32,993 nucleotides of DNA. Source: a virus (lineage: Duplodnaviria > Heunggongvirae > Uroviricota > Caudoviricetes). Position 1 is the first letter of the stretch, and each line of letters opens with the position of its first letter. Shown one piece after another: positions 6,053-26,072 of this stretch. The translations under genes were made by a program, and so were the position numbers. The stretch is taken from IMG/VR virus record IMGVR_UViG_2585427793_000011; one strand, 5' to 3'. The notes beneath the pieces were generated by a model. That model ran no database searches. It was not told where the DNA came from and was given only the letters and a program-made list of their open reading frames with translations.

Positions 6053-6724
6053 TTAAAGGGCAAACCTTTCTATGGTTCGATACACCTTGTCAAAAATTTG
6101 CTCTGAAAGTGAAATGGACCCATTTGTGTTAATTTCTAATGACTCATAACCGGTAACGTCCTTAACATTAAGTTTAACTTTATCAATTGTAAAATTTGCA
6201 TTTTTGAAAATGTTTCTTATTTCCATAAGTGCGTCACTTGATGACTCAAGTTCCAGTATGCCGGATGTGTGTTTGCTAAACGTTAAGTCTTTTAATTTTG
6301 CCTTGTGCACTTGTATTTTTTCAAAGTGCGGGGTCAGGAAATAAATGAAGTCCTCAATTTTGATGTTGAGATTTGACACATTAAAATCAGAATGTGTTGA
6401 TTTAATTATGTTTGATATGAAGTTCTTAATGCTTCTGGGAGGCGACTCAATGATTAAGATGAAGTTTTTACCTTTTGTTGTGTAAAGCCAAAAGTTAAAT
6501 TGAATATATTTTAGCTGTGTATATTGAGTCTCGTTTCCATATGGATCAACGATTATCTCGTTGACCTCTACTTTCTCGATGTATCGAGATGATATTGCAT
6601 TTTCTTCATATGAGTTGATACTAAATCCCCAGCCTTTATCACTATCAAAAGGAGTGTTAATGATAGACTGATATAAACTATCAAGTCCAGCAGGGAAGTT
6701 GGCAGTAAACCATTTTGTTTTCAT
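6053..6724 (-). CDS. Hypothetical protein, third gene of AT-rich cargo operon
   Basis: 223-aa ORF with AAGGAG Shine-Dalgarno 7 nt upstream of ATG; low GC; no family recognised. Confidence 0.7.
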   Translation of the reverse strand: MKTKWFTANFPAGLDSLYQSIINTPFDSDKGWGFSINSYEENAISSRYIEKVEVNEIIVDPYGNETQYTQLKYIQFNFWLYTTKGKNFILIIESPPRSIKNFISNIIKSTHSDFNVSNLNIKIEDFIYFLTPHFEKIQVHKAKLKDLTFSKHTSGILELESSSDALMEIRNIFKNANFTIDKVKLNVKDVTGYESLEINTNGSISLSEQIFDKVYRTIERFAL

Positions 6725-6735
6725 AACAACTCCTT

Positions 6736-7848
6736 TTATTTATCAGTAACAACCTCAATTGTGTTGGAGGCGATAATACTGTTTGAAATTTCGCGAGCGG
6801 TTTTTTCAAGTGCTAATAATAGCAGTTTTTCCTTCTCTTTATCTACATTTTGACGATTTGCATATTCGTTTATATTTTTGTACTTATAAACACCGCGAAC
6901 GATATACGAGAATAACTTGCAATTATCTGGGTCGACAAATTGAGCCTCGAATTCATATTTGTCCGAGTCTTTATAAGTGTCAACAACAGAACTCCAAATG
7001 ATTTTGGTAATATAAAATCCTTTTCCTAACAACTCCTTAAACTCGAGAGAGTCAAGAACGCTGCGCCCTTTTAGTGAAGCTTTGGAGATATGATATCCTG
7101 TGTCAATAATTGTATCGTCATCATCAGAATCATCTTCATTTTCGTTAGACTTATTTGACTCAAGAATTGGATGCGTAACGTATACATCCGATACGTCAAT
7201 GCATTTGTAGTTAGGTATGCTTGAGATTAGTTGCTCAAAAAATTTGCTTCTTTCCGCTGGTGATTTAACAGTTTCGAGCGAAATCTCATCAAGACTGGCT
7301 GGATCCTCATTGTTGTCTTCTTTGATCTTCTCCACGAGGCGCTCGTTGAATTCCCTTGCTTTAGCATTTTGAGGGAAACGGGTGATAAATTCACCGCTTT
7401 CATTCATTTCAACTTGTATTTTGGCTTCACGTGATGAGGATTGGCGAAACTCGCTCATTTTGAAATCTAGTTTCACATATTTTATTGATACTTCAAAACC
7501 ATTCTCGGTGTAATTTATATTAGTTATATCGCCTTCTTTTTGAAGATCTTCACAAATAGATTTAATAGTATTTTCCATACTATTTTTATCTATATTTGTA
7601 TTAATAATGTTAATTGATACTTTTTCTCTCCGCCCAACAGAACCGAGTATGTTTGAAAGAAATTCAAAATCAGAATAGCCATGATAGTATCTGGAAAAAT
7701 CCAAAGCCAATGTTTTTCGTTTAGTCTCTTTGGATATAATCATTCCTCTTTTAAAAAAGAGACTTTTCATATCTTCATGAGTGACTTTAGTTTGATTCAA
7801 TGCGTCAAACATTGCCTTATCATTTACACTATATAATCCAATTTTCAT
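6736..7848 (-). CDS. Hypothetical acidic protein, second gene of AT-rich cargo operon
   Basis: 370 aa from ATG at 7848, which forms an ATGA overlap with the upstream gene stop (ORF track extends to TTG 7863); GGGAG upstream; contains NENEDDSDDDD acidic tract. Confidence 0.7.
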   Translation of the reverse strand: MKIGLYSVNDKAMFDALNQTKVTHEDMKSLFFKRGMIISKETKRKTLALDFSRYYHGYSDFEFLSNILGSVGRREKVSINIINTNIDKNSMENTIKSICEDLQKEGDITNINYTENGFEVSIKYVKLDFKMSEFRQSSSREAKIQVEMNESGEFITRFPQNAKAREFNERLVEKIKEDNNEDPASLDEISLETVKSPAERSKFFEQLISSIPNYKCIDVSDVYVTHPILESNKSNENEDDSDDDDTIIDTGYHISKASLKGRSVLDSLEFKELLGKGFYITKIIWSSVVDTYKDSDKYEFEAQFVDPDNCKLFSYIVRGVYKYKNINEYANRQNVDKEKEKLLLLALEKTAREISNSIIASNTIEVVTDK

Positions 7849-8909
7849 GCCTGTCGCTCCCAACCAATCTCTACCGAACTAAAACGAGGCTTTGTAAATT
7901 CTACCTGTTGAAAATCAATAGCATCTATTATCGTTTTTTTATGTTCATCGAAACCCCATTCTTGACAATAACTATCCTTTGCACGCATAAAAATACTGCG
8001 AACATCTTTATGTATGTTAGGGTTAACTATTCTAATTCTTATATTTTCATTGCCATCCAGTAATTGATATTTAGATAGTGTGTCCAGAATGTAAATAAAC
8101 TCTAGCTCGTTTTTTCCTTCGCCATTGTAATAAATAATGTAACCATGTTTAAATGTGGTTTCCCATTGTGATGTTTCTTCATTGCAATGTCTGACGTCAT
8201 TATGTTTTATAATAAGGAATGGGCCTGTCAATAATTCTACAGTTGCTGGAAGTTCTTCGGGCGAACCGCTTACTTTATGTAGTGAAAGGTCTGGGTAAAA
8301 GAATTGATATTTTTTACCGAGTGGAAACTCTCTTTTGTGGCTTAGTTGTGATAAATCGCAGATTATTGACTGCAGGTAGTTTATAGTTCTTGGTTCAATA
8401 ATGTGTATTTTTTGACCGGCCCTTACCGGTATATTGTCAAGATTGATACCTCTTTTCTTCTTATCAGTTTCAGTATTGTGAGACTGATAGAATACATCAT
8501 AAAAAGATTGGTCAAAGTCTCCGTCATGGTTGTATACAAAGAGCATGCCTCTGACTTCTGACGCACCACTTTTATAAGAATAACGCTCCTTCCATTCTTT
8601 ACAACCTTGAGCACAGTCAATAGAATTAGCCAGCGATACTAAAGCATTGCGCATTTTAGTTGCTGTAATTGAGCCTTTAATATAGCTTTTTAAATCAGTA
8701 TTTAAAAAAATGGTTCTATTCAAATAGGGATCTTTATAAGAAAATACAACATCAGTTGGATGTGTTCCGGCTAGTGTTTTATGTTGATCTTTTTTCATGC
8801 ATGGAAAGTTTTCATTGGTTGGACCAACGAGTTCCCACTTAAACCATTTGAATAGGTCTGAAGATATTTTTTCTGCCATTGCTGAAATATTTTGAGTTTC
8901 ACCTGACAT
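7845..8909 (-). CDS. Hypothetical protein, first gene of AT-rich cargo operon
   Basis: 354-aa ORF, AGGT 9 nt upstream of ATG, AT-rich promoter-like region upstream; no family recognised with confidence. Confidence 0.7.
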   Translation of the reverse strand: MSGETQNISAMAEKISSDLFKWFKWELVGPTNENFPCMKKDQHKTLAGTHPTDVVFSYKDPYLNRTIFLNTDLKSYIKGSITATKMRNALVSLANSIDCAQGCKEWKERYSYKSGASEVRGMLFVYNHDGDFDQSFYDVFYQSHNTETDKKKRGINLDNIPVRAGQKIHIIEPRTINYLQSIICDLSQLSHKREFPLGKKYQFFYPDLSLHKVSGSPEELPATVELLTGPFLIIKHNDVRHCNEETSQWETTFKHGYIIYYNGEGKNELEFIYILDTLSKYQLLDGNENIRIRIVNPNIHKDVRSIFMRAKDSYCQEWGFDEHKKTIIDAIDFQQVEFTKPRFSSVEIGWERQA

Positions 8910-17641: not shown

Positions 17642-18071
17642 TGCCGTCATGGTGCTGAAAACCAGTCCCGAGATGCTGCGGATATTCGTGGATAACGGGA
17701 GTATTGCCTCCACACTGGCGACGTCGCTGTCATTCGAAAAGCGTTACACGCTCAATGTGATTGTGACCGACTTTACCGGTGATTTTGACCTGCTCATCGT
17801 GCCGGTGCTGGCGTGGCTGCGGGAAAATCAGCCCGACATCATGACCACTGACGAAGGTCAGAAAAAGGGCTTCACGTTTTATGCAGACATCAACAATGAC
17901 AGCAGCTTTGATATCAGCATCAGCCTGATGCTGACCGAGCGCACGCTGGTCAGTGAGGTGGACGGCGCGCTGCATGTGAAGAATATCCCGGAACCCACGC
18001 CGCCGGAGCCGGCCACCCGCCCGATGGAGCTTTATATCAATGGCGAACTGGTGAGCAAGTGGGATGAATGA
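17604..18071 (+). CDS. R: Tail completion protein R
   Basis: 155 aa, P2 gpR length and position. Confidence 0.85.
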   Translation: MLKPDSLRRALTDAVMVLKTSPEMLRIFVDNGSIASTLATSLSFEKRYTLNVIVTDFTGDFDLLIVPVLAWLRENQPDIMTTDEGQKKGFTFYADINNDSSFDISISLMLTERTLVSEVDGALHVKNIPEPTPPEPATRPMELYINGELVSKWDE

Positions 18072-18516
18072 GTTTAAGCGTTTTGAAGACCGGCTGGCGG
18101 GACTTATTGAATCGCTGTCACCGTCAGGGCGTCGGCGACTGAGCGCCGAACTGGCGAAACGTCTGCGTCAGAGTCAGCAGCGTCGGGTGATGGCACAGAA
18201 AGCCCCGGACGGCACACCCTACGCGCCACGCCAGCAGCAGAGCGCCAGAAAAAAGACCGGTCGTGTTAAGCGAAAAATGTTTGCGAAACTTATCACCAGT
18301 CGTTTTTTGCATATCCGCGCCAGCCCGGAACAGGCATCAATGGAATTTTACGGCGGGAAGTCGCCGAAAATCGCCAGTGTGCATCAGTTCGGTCTGTCGG
18401 AAGAAACCCGGAAAAACGGTAAGAAAATTGATTATCCGGCGCGTCCTCTGCTCGGCTTTACCGGTGAGGATGTGCAGATGATTGAAGAGATTATCCTGGC
18501 TCACCTTGAGCGTTAG
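18064..18516 (+). CDS. S: Tail completion protein S
   Basis: 150 aa, P2 gpS length and position. Confidence 0.85.
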   Translation: MNEFKRFEDRLAGLIESLSPSGRRRLSAELAKRLRQSQQRRVMAQKAPDGTPYAPRQQQSARKKTGRVKRKMFAKLITSRFLHIRASPEQASMEFYGGKSPKIASVHQFGLSEETRKNGKKIDYPARPLLGFTGEDVQMIEEIILAHLER

Positions 18517-18546
18517 TTTTATCCAGGCAGAGGCTGATGCGCAATT

Positions 18547-18581
18547 AAACATTGAGCGGCCATGCTGGTCGCTCAATGTTT
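18547..18581. terminator. Bidirectional terminator / 12-bp perfect inverted repeat between S and the minus-strand cargo gene
   Basis: AAACATTGAGCG-(11 nt)-CGCTCAATGTTT perfect inverted repeat between convergent gene ends. Confidence 0.55.
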
Positions 18582-18587
18582 AGAGGT

Positions 18588-19373
18588 TTATGAGTGATTT
18601 TTATTTGATGCTTTGTATTCTACAACCTTCTTATTGGCGTAAAGGAATTTTGTATATGACAGGAATATAACCAGACCTGAAATGAAATAGATGAGGGATA
18701 TTATTAATAATGCTTTTTTTTGGCTGTTATTATCTTTAATCTCCTGACTTAACCATTCGGAGTCCTCCTCGTTTAGCTGTAAGAGCTTATTGCAGGCGAT
18801 CTCAGGAAGTGTGTCTTTTATAAATACGTTTCGTAGCCTCTTGCAATCGGCAAGGCTATAAGTTTTATTGAATTCAACTGTTTTATTGTTGAAGGATAAA
18901 AGAACTTTGTCACTATAAACATAGTACATCATATTTTTATATGGTATGCCTATGGCATCTCTTACTATAGCGGATTGTTTGTTGTGTATATAACATGCGA
19001 GGAGAATGTAAAAAATACTGGCCAGAATTACAATTATTGTTTTAATTATGTGTGGTGGTTTTGTTATGTCACCCCAGATGCGAGTAAGGAAAAAATACGA
19101 TGTTTTTAGTTTTCCATCAATCAGTCCCTGCTGTATCATTCTCACATTTTCAATGCCTGATACATTGATTCCGTTAATTATTTTAAATAGTTGAATGTCG
19201 CGCCACTCGCGGTCAAGTCTTTTTAATTTTTTGTCTGAATATCCAAAATTGAAATAATGTGCAATAAGCCTCATAAGGTTACTTTTACCAAAGCTAAAAA
19301 ATGCTAATACTGCAAAGCTACAAAGGAAAAAAACGATTAGCCCCCACACATTAGTCACATTATAGCTGACCAT
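18588..19373 (-). CDS. Hypothetical membrane protein (P2 orf30 position cargo gene)
   Basis: 261-aa AT-rich ORF, AAGGAG upstream of ATG; three hydrophobic segments (N-terminal, central, C-terminal) consistent with TM helices. Confidence 0.7.
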   Translation of the reverse strand: MVSYNVTNVWGLIVFFLCSFAVLAFFSFGKSNLMRLIAHYFNFGYSDKKLKRLDREWRDIQLFKIINGINVSGIENVRMIQQGLIDGKLKTSYFFLTRIWGDITKPPHIIKTIIVILASIFYILLACYIHNKQSAIVRDAIGIPYKNMMYYVYSDKVLLSFNNKTVEFNKTYSLADCKRLRNVFIKDTLPEIACNKLLQLNEEDSEWLSQEIKDNNSQKKALLIISLIYFISGLVIFLSYTKFLYANKKVVEYKASNKNHS

Positions 19374-19456
19374 TACGCTCTCCTTGAATGTTGTCTGGTA
19401 GTTCTACAAATGAATCCAGATAGCATAACTTTTATATATTGTGCAATCTCACATGC

Positions 19457-20092
19457 ATGAACACTCTCGCAAATATTCAGGAACTCGCGCGCGCACTGCG
19501 CAACATGATTCGCACCGGCATTATCGTCGAAACCGACCTTAACGCCGGTCGCTGCCGTGTGCAGACCGGCGGCATGTGCACTGACTGGCTTCAGTGGCTG
19601 ACCCATCGTGCCGGTCGTTCGCGCACATGGTGGGCACCTTCCGTGGGGGAGCAGGTGCTGATTCTGGCCGTGGGCGGTGAACTCGACACGGCGTTCGTTC
19701 TGCCGGGGATTTATTCCGGCGATAACCCCGCGCCGTCTGCGTCGGCGGATGCCCTGCATATCCGTTTCCCTGACGGGGCGGTGATTGAATATGAACCCGA
19801 AACCAGTGCACTCACGGCAAGCGGAATTAAAACGGCCAGCGTGACGGCTTCTGATTCTGTTACTGCCACGGTGCCGATGGTCATGGTGAAAGCATCAACC
19901 CGCGTCACCCTGGACACACCGGAGGTGGTCTGCACCAACAGGCTGATTACCGGCACGCTGGAAGTGCAGAAGGGCGGGACGATGCGCGGCAACATTGAAC
20001 ACACCGGCGGTGAACTCTCATCAAACGGTAAGGTACTGCATACCCACAAACACCCCGGCGACAGCGGCGGCACAACCGGGAGTCCTTTATGA
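19457..20092 (+). CDS. V: Baseplate spike / assembly protein V
   Basis: 211 aa from ATG at 19457 (MNTLANIQ...), P2 gpV length. Confidence 0.9.
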   Translation: MNTLANIQELARALRNMIRTGIIVETDLNAGRCRVQTGGMCTDWLQWLTHRAGRSRTWWAPSVGEQVLILAVGGELDTAFVLPGIYSGDNPAPSASADALHIRFPDGAVIEYEPETSALTASGIKTASVTASDSVTATVPMVMVKASTRVTLDTPEVVCTNRLITGTLEVQKGGTMRGNIEHTGGELSSNGKVLHTHKHPGDSGGTTGSPL

Positions 20093-24989: not shown

Positions 24990-26072
24990 CTAATTATTTT
25001 GGCAAGTGCTGTCAGCGAGCAGAGAAAAATCACTATTTTCAATTGCGTTCACAAGTTTTGCAATATCATGATTTTTTTCATAAAAGATATATAACGCCGC
25101 ATACAGATTCATTTCGGGTTCAATCTTTGGAAATGACACGCTGATCATACGTTCATTTTTGATATATGCATCATCACCCTTATAGTACATTCCAACATAA
25201 TTGTCCCATCGTTCAATAAGACTCATCTCGAACAAATCATCAAGGTCTTTTGAAAAAGATTGATAGTTTGTATCGTCAATCATTAGTGGCCCGAAAAGTT
25301 GCTTTTCAGGAAACTCGATTTTCGTGCTTGTACTCTTCGGTATATTTATCTCACTGATAATTTTGCTTAAAAGATTTCTAGCAGATAAAGTGCATTGACG
25401 CAGTCTATTTTTAAAAAGTTCTAGAAATTCATATACGATCTGCTCACCTTCGTCAACATCATCAAACCATTCATTAGTATGAATTAACGCGTTGAAAAGA
25501 CTCAAGTCAAAGGGGATCGGCTTGTTTTTTGATACACAATACCCCTGATTGAAAGCAACGTCCCCAGGAGAGAAATAATCCGAGTATTCTTTCCGGGCAA
25601 GGGTCAAAAAATCACGCTGAAATTCTAAAGTTTGTCCCATTACCTTTTCGACTAGGTCGTACAATGTGAAATATTTGCACTGAAAATCGTCAGGGTGTTC
25701 ACGTACGTTATCAGGTAGGCGTTCAGCCGTGAGGACGAAAAACCAAATCTCGTCAAACTTACCCTTTAACTTCTCATTGTTTCGAAGTTTGTCTAATGTT
25801 TTCTGATACTTAACCTTTCTTGCAGTGGCAGTCATTTGCAAACCTAAGCGCTTTCCCGGTTGCACATAGTCGAGACCAGGGTAGTTTTGGGATATCCTAT
25901 TCATATCCTCAAACTGCTCTCCCCAGGCATGATTGATTAGAGGCAATAGCGAACTCTCTTGGGCTGTAGAAAGATCATTTAAATTGCTGCTGGTTTGCAT
26001 CTTGATTTGAGTAGCAAGTTTCGTTGCAAAGCTAGTTAATTCTTCCCTGTTTTTCATTTGCTCTGGTTTCAA
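24990..26072 (-). CDS. Hypothetical protein (Z/fun-locus cargo gene, candidate defence/abortive-infection protein)
   Basis: 355-360-aa AT-rich ORF counter-oriented to the flanking tail genes; start either TTG at 26072 (GGAG upstream) or ATG at 26057. Confidence 0.7.
   Translation of the reverse strand: MKPEQMKNREELTSFATKLATQIKMQTSSNLNDLSTAQESSLLPLINHAWGEQFEDMNRISQNYPGLDYVQPGKRLGLQMTATARKVKYQKTLDKLRNNEKLKGKFDEIWFFVLTAERLPDNVREHPDDFQCKYFTLYDLVEKVMGQTLEFQRDFLTLARKEYSDYFSPGDVAFNQGYCVSKNKPIPFDLSLFNALIHTNEWFDDVDEGEQIVYEFLELFKNRLRQCTLSARNLLSKIISEINIPKSTSTKIEFPEKQLFGPLMIDDTNYQSFSKDLDDLFEMSLIERWDNYVGMYYKGDDAYIKNERMISVSFPKIEPEMNLYAALYIFYEKNHDIAKLVNAIENSDFSLLADSTCQNN

Follow-up and report, generated by a model that had tools for sequence, protein, structure and literature searches.

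The window analysed here is a stretch of 32,993 nucleotides from a Caudoviricetes virus record (IMGVR_UViG_2585427793_000011), and it comprises a complete P2-like prophage, with an integrase gene at its left end, ogr at its right end and the head, lysis and tail genes in P2 order. We found that an AT-rich open reading frame (ORF) between the tail genes S and V (18588..19373, minus strand) is, judged by its sequence, phage P2 orf30 itself and more than a mere occupant of the orf30 position. A function that benefits the lysogen at the cell envelope, or that excludes other phages, fits best with a gene that is non-essential, absent from viable relatives, oriented against its neighbours, placed in an accessory island, constrained in sequence, predicted to encode an inner-membrane protein and kept after prophage decay. 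We put this function forward tentatively, as possible rather than probable.

Identity of the gene between S and V

The ORF is intact, starts with ATG and encodes 261 amino acids (aa) followed by a stop codon. It has 33.6% GC, compared with 54% in S, 60% in V, ~58% in the tail genes around it and 50.7% in the whole window. Since 261 stop-free codons would arise by chance with a probability of only ~2e-9, as calculated from the ORF's own base composition, we take it to be a real gene. The encoded protein shares 95.4% aa identity with P2 Orf30 (AF063097, AAD03281) over 261/261 aa, with 12 of the 261 residues differing, and it matches PHROG 2407 from end to end (E 1e-147, 1-261 of 261), a family that carries the label 'unknown function'. 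Over the surrounding 1.2 kb (18400-19600), the window matches phages vB_EcoM-12474II-V at 100% identity and phage P2 at 97.8%. The likeness to P2 extends to the length of the protein, the position between S and V, the strand, a hairpin downstream of the gene and the activator site of the V promoter, P_V, so that the two genes differ only as alleles do.

The gene is thus an already named one, long annotated as non-essential (the P2 GenBank record calls Orf30 'nonessential'), and its presence here will be no surprise to a specialist. The literature names three loci at which P2-like phages accommodate horizontally acquired genes, the TO region, Z/fun and orf30, and treats orf30 as an ORF to which no function is assigned; a full-text literature search returned no functional study of it. 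An earlier note on this DNA, written from the letters alone, had described a 261-aa AT-rich ORF on the strand opposite to the tail genes and at the P2 orf30 position. This description was borne out, and the last part of it is exceeded by the identity reported above, which the note had overlooked: it did not recognize the ORF as a known, named gene. The homology search that the note had proposed returned P2 Orf30 and PHROG 2407. Homology to a structural or assembly protein, which it had named as the finding that would speak against its proposal, was not seen in Pfam, PHROGs, BFVD or the PDB; in addition, orf30 is absent from the viable phage Wphi, and this together with its non-essential annotation argues against a structural or assembly role.

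An Orf30 family with a fixed position beside V

Close relatives of Orf30 are few. A word-indexed search of 5.8 billion proteins returned four close clusters and one 40% relative only, and an exhaustive profile search of 1.84 billion representative proteins recovered 44 family members, of which the full-length ones are 239-271 aa long and collinear. All named members belong to the Enterobacterales (Escherichia, Enterobacter, Yersinia, Serratia, Pectobacterium, Sodalis and Gibbsiella). In a set of 50,697 sequenced phage genomes, tblastn with the window protein, the Yersinia member P0027 and P0006 as queries found the family in ~21 P2-type Peduovirus records only, and a search of IMG/VR for the Enterobacter cloacae member P0030 gave no match.

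Even members with only ~20% identity share the length, the architecture and the motifs. A 27-sequence alignment has four invariant positions (G68, G87, C194 and I212) and four nearly invariant ones (G29, Q61, D76 and K254). Conservation is densest at aa 47-90, which includes the motif D-x-Q-L-F-[KR]-x-x-N-G-[IV]-N-V...D-A. Ten of the 27 aligned members weakly match the Pfam family DUF6216 (PF19723), whereas the window protein itself has no match to it even at E<=10. The strongest connection is made by a Sodalis member located between S and V (P0029), which the P2 Orf30 profile finds at E 7e-14 and which scores 28.9 bits against DUF6216, where the gathering threshold is 27.3, in a collinear alignment of residues 10-255 with positions 10-265 of 270. 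Because ten of 27 members match and the Sodalis member passes the gathering score at full length, the Orf30 family appears to be a divergent branch of DUF6216, by a link that is transitive and runs through the family profile. The DUF6216 name is uninformative on function.

Homologues also occupy the interval between S and V, transcribed away from V, in P2-like prophages of Gibbsiella, Serratia, Yersinia, Pectobacterium, Sodalis and strain ATCC 29904. These proteins share 22-25% identity with the window protein, except for the ATCC 29904 copy (~32-35%). By tblastn, the neighbouring gene products of five of these prophages are considerably closer to their counterparts in the window: 61-82% for gpV, 67-78% for gpJ, 55-73% for gpW, 53-77% for gpR and 44-52% for gpS. 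All homologues measured have 32-38% GC and lie beside V genes of 54-62% GC. The position is thus fixed and the sequence is not, a pattern that a sporadic insertion would not be expected to leave. Either the gene is an old, very fast-evolving resident, or it is a cassette repeatedly exchanged within one family.

Some of these prophages carry further cargo between S and V, namely a DUF4062 protein in Gibbsiella and a HigB/HigA-like pair with an antirepressor-like ORF in Pectobacterium (S-V cargo in other P2-like prophages: L003 8877-10214, L010 4507-6258 and L011 5796-7436). The additions are placed towards S, and V keeps the orf30-like gene as its neighbour.

Distribution of orf30 in Escherichia coli

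The window and Wphi are homologous up to the stop codon of S and again from the start codon of V onwards, and the 66-bp spacer of Wphi is unrelated to the intervening DNA of the window. These breaks in homology define the unit of presence or absence as a 940-bp cassette (18517..19456) that holds the hairpin, orf30 and the P2-type V promoter region. A P2-type S-V junction was found in 1572 of 5426 complete E. coli genomes; ~1021 of the 5426 contain an empty 66-bp junction at least once, and orf30 is present in 464 (~8.5%), always on the chromosome, with two copies in 18 genomes. About two thirds of the E. coli P2-type junctions are without orf30. The annotation pipeline PGAP calls an orf30 coding sequence in every E. 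coli genome among the matches listed. In E. coli the S-V locus is therefore essentially binary, being either empty or filled by orf30, and other cargo is rare. One such case is an ORF of phage R18C at this site (L017 981-1721), which we considered as a relative of orf30 and rejected: it is on the plus strand, AT-rich and HNH-like, and with a family profile score of -0.9 bits it is unrelated. The 66-bp Wphi-type spacer (L005 418-483) resembles the region upstream of V in Serratia, Yersinia and Gibbsiella prophages, and not that of P2.

Selection on orf30

We compared seven alleles from E. coli and Yersinia phages, in all of which orf30 is intact. The gene has a dN/dS of 0.46 and a dN of 0.074, and in the same comparison R, S, V, W and J have dN/dS values of 0.035-0.14 and dN values of 0.004-0.014, so that the dN of orf30 is 5-20x that of these neighbours. 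orf30 is under purifying selection, yet it evolves faster than the genes around it. Within the gene, the loops are constrained, with dN/dS values of 0.25-0.38.

Predicted topology and structure

Hydropathy analysis resolved three hydrophobic segments, at aa 9-27, 109-127 and 221-239, whose Kyte-Doolittle means over 19 residues are 2.4-2.6, in agreement with the roughly three segments that had been noticed before. From these we infer that Orf30 inserts into the inner membrane. Summed over the family, positively charged (K+R) and negatively charged (D+E) residues number 12/29 in the N-terminus, 236/148 in the first loop, 256/236 in the second loop and 99/52 in the C-terminal tail. By the positive-inside rule, these sums predict that the N-terminus is outside, loop 1 inside, loop 2 outside and the C-terminus inside. 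The topology prediction that the earlier note had called for thus yields three transmembrane (TM) helices with a positive-inside charge pattern, and its descriptive account of an AT-rich, counter-oriented cargo gene for a three-TM membrane protein was right.

Following this predicted topology along the minus strand, TM1 (aa 9-27; 19293..19349) would be an N-out signal anchor, as hydropathy and charge distribution suggest. Loop 1 (aa 28-108; 19050..19292) is the most conserved part of the protein, containing Q61, G68, D76 and G87, and the alignment, the charges and the helices modelled by AlphaFold2 (AF2) make it a predicted cytoplasmic helical domain. TM2 (aa 109-127; 18993..19049), supported by hydropathy, charge and AF2, leads into loop 2 (aa 128-220; 18714..18992), which on the strength of alignment, charge and AF2 is a predicted periplasmic alpha/beta domain containing C177 and C194. 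TM3 (aa 221-239; 18657..18713), again from hydropathy, charge and AF2, lies within a long helix (aa 202-260) and is followed by a basic, presumably cytoplasmic tail. Every family member in which the three segments are cleanly resolved has two cysteines in loop 2, of which C194 is invariant. Conservation of this pair fits a periplasmic disulfide, and C177 and C194 probably form one.

AF2, run with the 27-sequence alignment, gave a model with a pLDDT of 85.7 and a pTM of 0.76. Its N-terminal half consists of helix 6-28 (TM1), shorter helices at 30-40, 48-67, 74-86 and 91-94, and helix 109-134 (TM2). The C-terminal half has four strands within 141-173, helices at 174-179 and 189-198, and the long helix 202-260 that includes TM3. 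Domain searches of the window protein against Pfam and NCBIfam gave chance-level hits only (FtsX, E 2.5; PRK06286, E 2.1), a PDB sequence search with the family profile returned nothing below E 0.03, and Foldseek against BFVD returned nothing at E<=0.001.

The better structure model does resemble the CorA/ZntB/Mrs2 proteins, and we rejected membership in that family. Neither the GMN nor the G-x-N motif that defines CorA/MIT proteins is present: the residues after TM3 read KFLYANKK, with a conserved N, no G at -2 and no further TM segment. Orf30 has one TM segment after the stalk where CorA has two, and its alpha/beta domain is predicted to be periplasmic, in contrast to the cytoplasmic domain of CorA. 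The structural alignments have only 2-10% sequence identity, and there is no sequence-profile match.

Retention outside functional prophages

Members of the family also persist where the rest of the phage is decayed or gone. In E. cloacae, a solitary 254-aa family gene lies in an AT-rich islet of ~1 kb (L019 6769-7765) between yegQ and the gene for the small RNA (sRNA) CyaR on one side and yegS on the other. The gene is ~150 bp downstream of the CyaR/RyeE sRNA gene (identified as CyaR by Rfam at 101 bits), and no other P2-like coding sequence occurs within 7 kb of it. Four E. cloacae alleles from different assemblies (L019 and L025-L027) share the cyaR-yegS context and are intact; their exact sequences occur in 65 to 216 collection blocks. 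The dN/dS among these solitary copies is 0.31, from too few substitutions to be informative. The 3' region of cyaR is a P2-type attachment locus, at which E. coli K-12 retains the remnant ogrK. The solitary gene of E. cloacae has the look of prophage DNA that the host has domesticated.

A defective P2 prophage in E. coli B has lost the genes from portal gene Q into S and keeps an intact orf30 beside V (L024 4010-9786). An AT-rich islet between rplS and aroF contains an orf30-family gene together with fragments of ogr and int and a TIR-domain protein of the CAP12/PCTIR type (L022 3530-5777), and in Serratia a copy is found immediately outside a P2-like integrase. Retention of the gene both alone and in decayed prophages suggests that orf30 works on its own and benefits the host; its place in an accessory island and the copy next to a TIR protein point the same way. 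Two further observations concern the surroundings of these copies: the TO hotspot of the defective prophage of E. coli B holds an 'ABC-three component system' and an AAA ATPase, and the arrangement of a TIR gene with an orf30-like gene recurs on a second contig (L023).

Signals flanking orf30

To the left of orf30 lies gene S (18064..18516, plus strand; tail completion/virion morphogenesis), whose product matches Pfam Phage_tail_S (E 1e-43) and is 97% identical to P2 gpS. S and orf30 are convergent, and between their stop codons (18516 and 18588) is an inverted repeat (18546..18582) with 17-nt arms (18546-18562 and 18566-18582) that are 94% complementary and contain a perfect 12-bp core, AAACATTGAGCG/CGCTCAATGTTT. 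The hairpin folds at -21.3 kcal/mol on the minus strand (z -6.3), and on the plus strand a 91-nt stretch containing it folds at -38.1 kcal/mol (z -5.3). It had been noted previously as a 12-bp inverted-repeat terminator shared with S. The perfect repeat is indeed there, and the terminator role is putative: folding and the P2 annotation ('putative rho-independent terminator for O operon') are consistent with a bidirectional terminator, and a simple terminator scan did not call the hairpin because it lacks the canonical T-run.

On the other side, the Shine-Dalgarno sequence AAGGAG (19380..19385, minus strand), which had been noticed before, lies 6 nt upstream of the ATG; it makes a strong ribosome-binding site and is conserved as AAGGAG or GAGGAG in eight alleles. 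Next comes the 28-bp Ogr/delta activator-binding site of the late promoter P_V (19388..19415, plus strand), 15 bp from the orf30 start codon and identical to AF063097 10239-10266; the label of this stretch in the P2 record is 'activator binding site; activation of pV promoter'. Gene V (19457..20092, plus strand), which encodes the baseplate spike (Pfam Phage_base_V and Phage_spike), is divergent from orf30. The intergenic DNA on either side of orf30 is nearly invariant among alleles. Inspection by eye revealed no Ogr-type dyad positioned to drive orf30, and no Rfam RNA family was found anywhere in the window.

We infer that orf30 is expressed from the prophage, and silencing by H-NS is likely because the gene is AT-rich. 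A bioRxiv preprint of September 2026 entitled 'H-NS silences antiviral immunity through 3D chromatin compaction' (10.64898/2026.09.05.749240) may bear on the family: by term counts, it contains DUF6216 once, P2-like four times and BL21 29 times. These counts describe how often the terms occur in that text, not what it says of them. BL21 derives from E. coli B, the strain whose defective P2 has kept orf30.

The start of the V transcript deserves mention of its own. The P2 record places the transcription start of the V operon on the first base of the V coding sequence, and in the window the centre of the activator site is ~55 bp upstream of the V ATG (19388-19457); from these two positions, the V mRNA may be leaderless or nearly so.

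Accessory islands of the window

Three islands of the window stand out as strongly AT-rich: the TO region, orf30 and Z/fun. The first and the last of them match models of candidate defence systems. The TO-region (old/tin) hotspot (6053-8909, minus strand) contains three AT-rich ORFs of 223, 375 and 354 aa with 33-35% GC and no Pfam domain, which match the PADLOC candidate models Hp3 (E 6e-8), Hp2 (E 4e-37) and Hp1 (E 2e-63), respectively. The Z/fun hotspot (24990-26072, minus strand) encodes a protein of 360 aa that carries a SMEK domain at its N-terminus (Pfam E 2e-19) and partially matches the PADLOC model 'Aga_REase-PNTD1-PNTD2' (E 4e-18).

Discussion

We propose that orf30 would be a self-contained accessory ('moron') gene for a three-pass inner-membrane protein, laid out as a short acidic periplasmic N-terminus, a helical cytoplasmic loop of ~80 aa, an alpha/beta periplasmic loop of ~90 aa and a basic cytoplasmic tail. 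Dispensable for building and propagating the phage, such a protein would benefit the lysogen at the cell envelope and could exclude other phages by stopping genome translocation, as T4 Imm or HK97 gp15 do. If the role is to protect the lysogen, it is probably one of phage exclusion. The earlier note had suggested superinfection exclusion or abortive infection, as is common for membrane-protein cargo genes, and either may hold. A specific block of the Imm/gp15 type at the inner membrane is favoured because T4 Imm, an inner-membrane protein, binds the tape-measure pore and so blocks genome entry (bioRxiv 10.64898/2026.03.06.709160), and because the fastest-evolving parts of Orf30 are its TM helices; stated that precisely, we consider the proposal rather unlikely. 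A broader extrapolation, which strikes us as distinctly unlikely, is that Orf30 and DUF6216 would constitute a lineage-wide immunity module of P2-like phages, kept beside the spike gene throughout the time that this lineage has infected Enterobacterales. It would act on contractile-tail phages or tailocins as they arrive, by intercepting their membrane-penetrating tape-measure or spike pore, with arms-race diversification in the TM helices and domestication by the host at cyaR-yegS.

Several observations weigh against a lysogen-protecting envelope function. The dN/dS values above 1 in TM1 (1.2) and TM3 (1.75) come from few sites and could merely reflect tolerated hydrophobic swaps. The window protein matched none of the 5027 defence models of PADLOC (PADLOC-DB v2) at E<=10, belongs to no Pfam or NCBIfam family and gave no informative fold match. 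Standard and relaxed scans detected no credible sigma-70 promoter in the 83-bp spacer 5' of orf30, where the best candidate (GTGAGA-19-TATGCT) reaches 8/12 with 19 nt between its two hexamers; these 83 bp are filled by P_V and its activator site, and any promoter of orf30 must overlap P_V or lie inside V. Classical P2 genetics has traced exclusion to the genes old, tin and fun, and P2 vir forms plaques on lysogens of P2, which makes exclusion of P2 by itself unlikely. The E. coli genomes with two copies indicate that orf30 is no absolute bar to a second orf30-bearing prophage. Lastly, when E. coli C lysogens of four P2-like phages were challenged with a phage panel, only AC1 was reported to protect, and its protection was reproduced by its TIR hotspot system alone (Rousset et al. 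2022); three of these four phages (AC1, DC1 and SIAC10) carry orf30 alleles.

The next option is that the same protein would act after infection instead of at entry. As an abortive-infection effector, Orf30 would sit idle in the inner membrane until its cytoplasmic loop sensed a phage product or signal, upon which it would oligomerize, permeabilize or depolarize the membrane and kill the infected cell. The conserved cytoplasmic loop could serve as the sensor, and the CorA-like shape and the TIR neighbour would both fit; as with exclusion, the absence of any PADLOC match and of a recognizable sigma-70 promoter speaks against it, and on balance we think this mode of action unlikely.

Another kind of immunity at the envelope would shield the lysogen from contractile-tail particles (sibling P2-like virions or R-type tailocins) or from pore-forming bacteriocins, or would alter an envelope property that has nothing to do with phages. 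The constant place of orf30 beside the spike gene V and divergent from it agrees with such a role, as does the fact that hosts keep it once the prophage is lost. The arrangement, in which a small AT-rich gene for a membrane protein runs counter to its convergent and divergent neighbours, also recalls that of the immunity genes of pore-forming colicins. Against this stands the lack of a sequence link to colicin immunity proteins, the one hit being that of a single family member to Colicin-K immunity at chance level (E 0.11), and we regard immunity of this kind as improbable.

A role in the lytic cycle is harder to reconcile with the data. An accessory that tunes lysis, assists membrane events in assembly or prevents re-adsorption of progeny could be dispensable in the laboratory; precedents exist in P2 itself, where non-essential membrane proteins such as LysA tune lysis, and the position beside P_V and the tail genes is conserved across genera. 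However, all late operons are on the other strand, orf30 itself has no promoter with late geometry, it is missing from most E. coli P2-like phages, which are viable, and it is kept alone in chromosomes that have no remaining phage. The case for it is accordingly slim. Very improbable, finally, is a functionless or selfish passenger, an H-NS-silenced AT-rich insert at a permissive site: the failure to find a promoter, a GC content that is presumably typical of H-NS targets and the lack of a published phenotype would suit it, but the ORF is intact in the seven phage alleles, in the E. coli B copy and in the solitary E. cloacae copies, its dN/dS is below 1, and the family keeps its length, architecture and motifs over great divergence.

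A lysogen-benefiting function at the envelope, or exclusion, would matter for P2 in particular. P2 is a founding model of temperate phages, and orf30 is among the very few of its genes that lack an assigned function ~30 years after being named. The recent surveys of P2 defence hotspots found in the literature cover old/tin and Z/fun, and not the S-V locus. New here are a definition of the family that connects it to DUF6216, the finding that its members keep to the side of V in several genera, a topology model that includes a conserved pair of cysteines, the pattern of selection and the solitary chromosomal copies. A family with a fixed position beside the spike gene, a connection to DUF6216 and retention by hosts makes the question of orf30 tractable, which is not to say answered. 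Should Orf30 prove to be an exclusion or immunity protein, a membrane-level defence would be added to the P2 repertoire and DUF6216 would gain its first function; should it have no phenotype, orf30 would be an ordinary moron.

Among known systems, T4 Imm, HK97 gp15 and P22 SieA are like Orf30, as predicted here, in being small phage-encoded inner-membrane proteins that are dispensable for phage growth. HK97 gp15 is encoded by a moron embedded in the tail-gene cluster, and orf30 too is a moron within a tail-gene cluster. Orf30 differs from all three in being larger (261 aa, with three TM segments and two soluble domains), and it has no sequence or fold similarity to them in Pfam, PHROGs, BFVD or the PDB. 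With old, tin and Z/fun of P2 itself, orf30 has in common that it is AT-rich, horizontally acquired, non-essential cargo at one of three recognized variable loci. Exclusion phenotypes have been demonstrated for those genes, however, and their loci are hypervariable, whereas the S-V locus in E. coli alternates between two states, with orf30 or empty.

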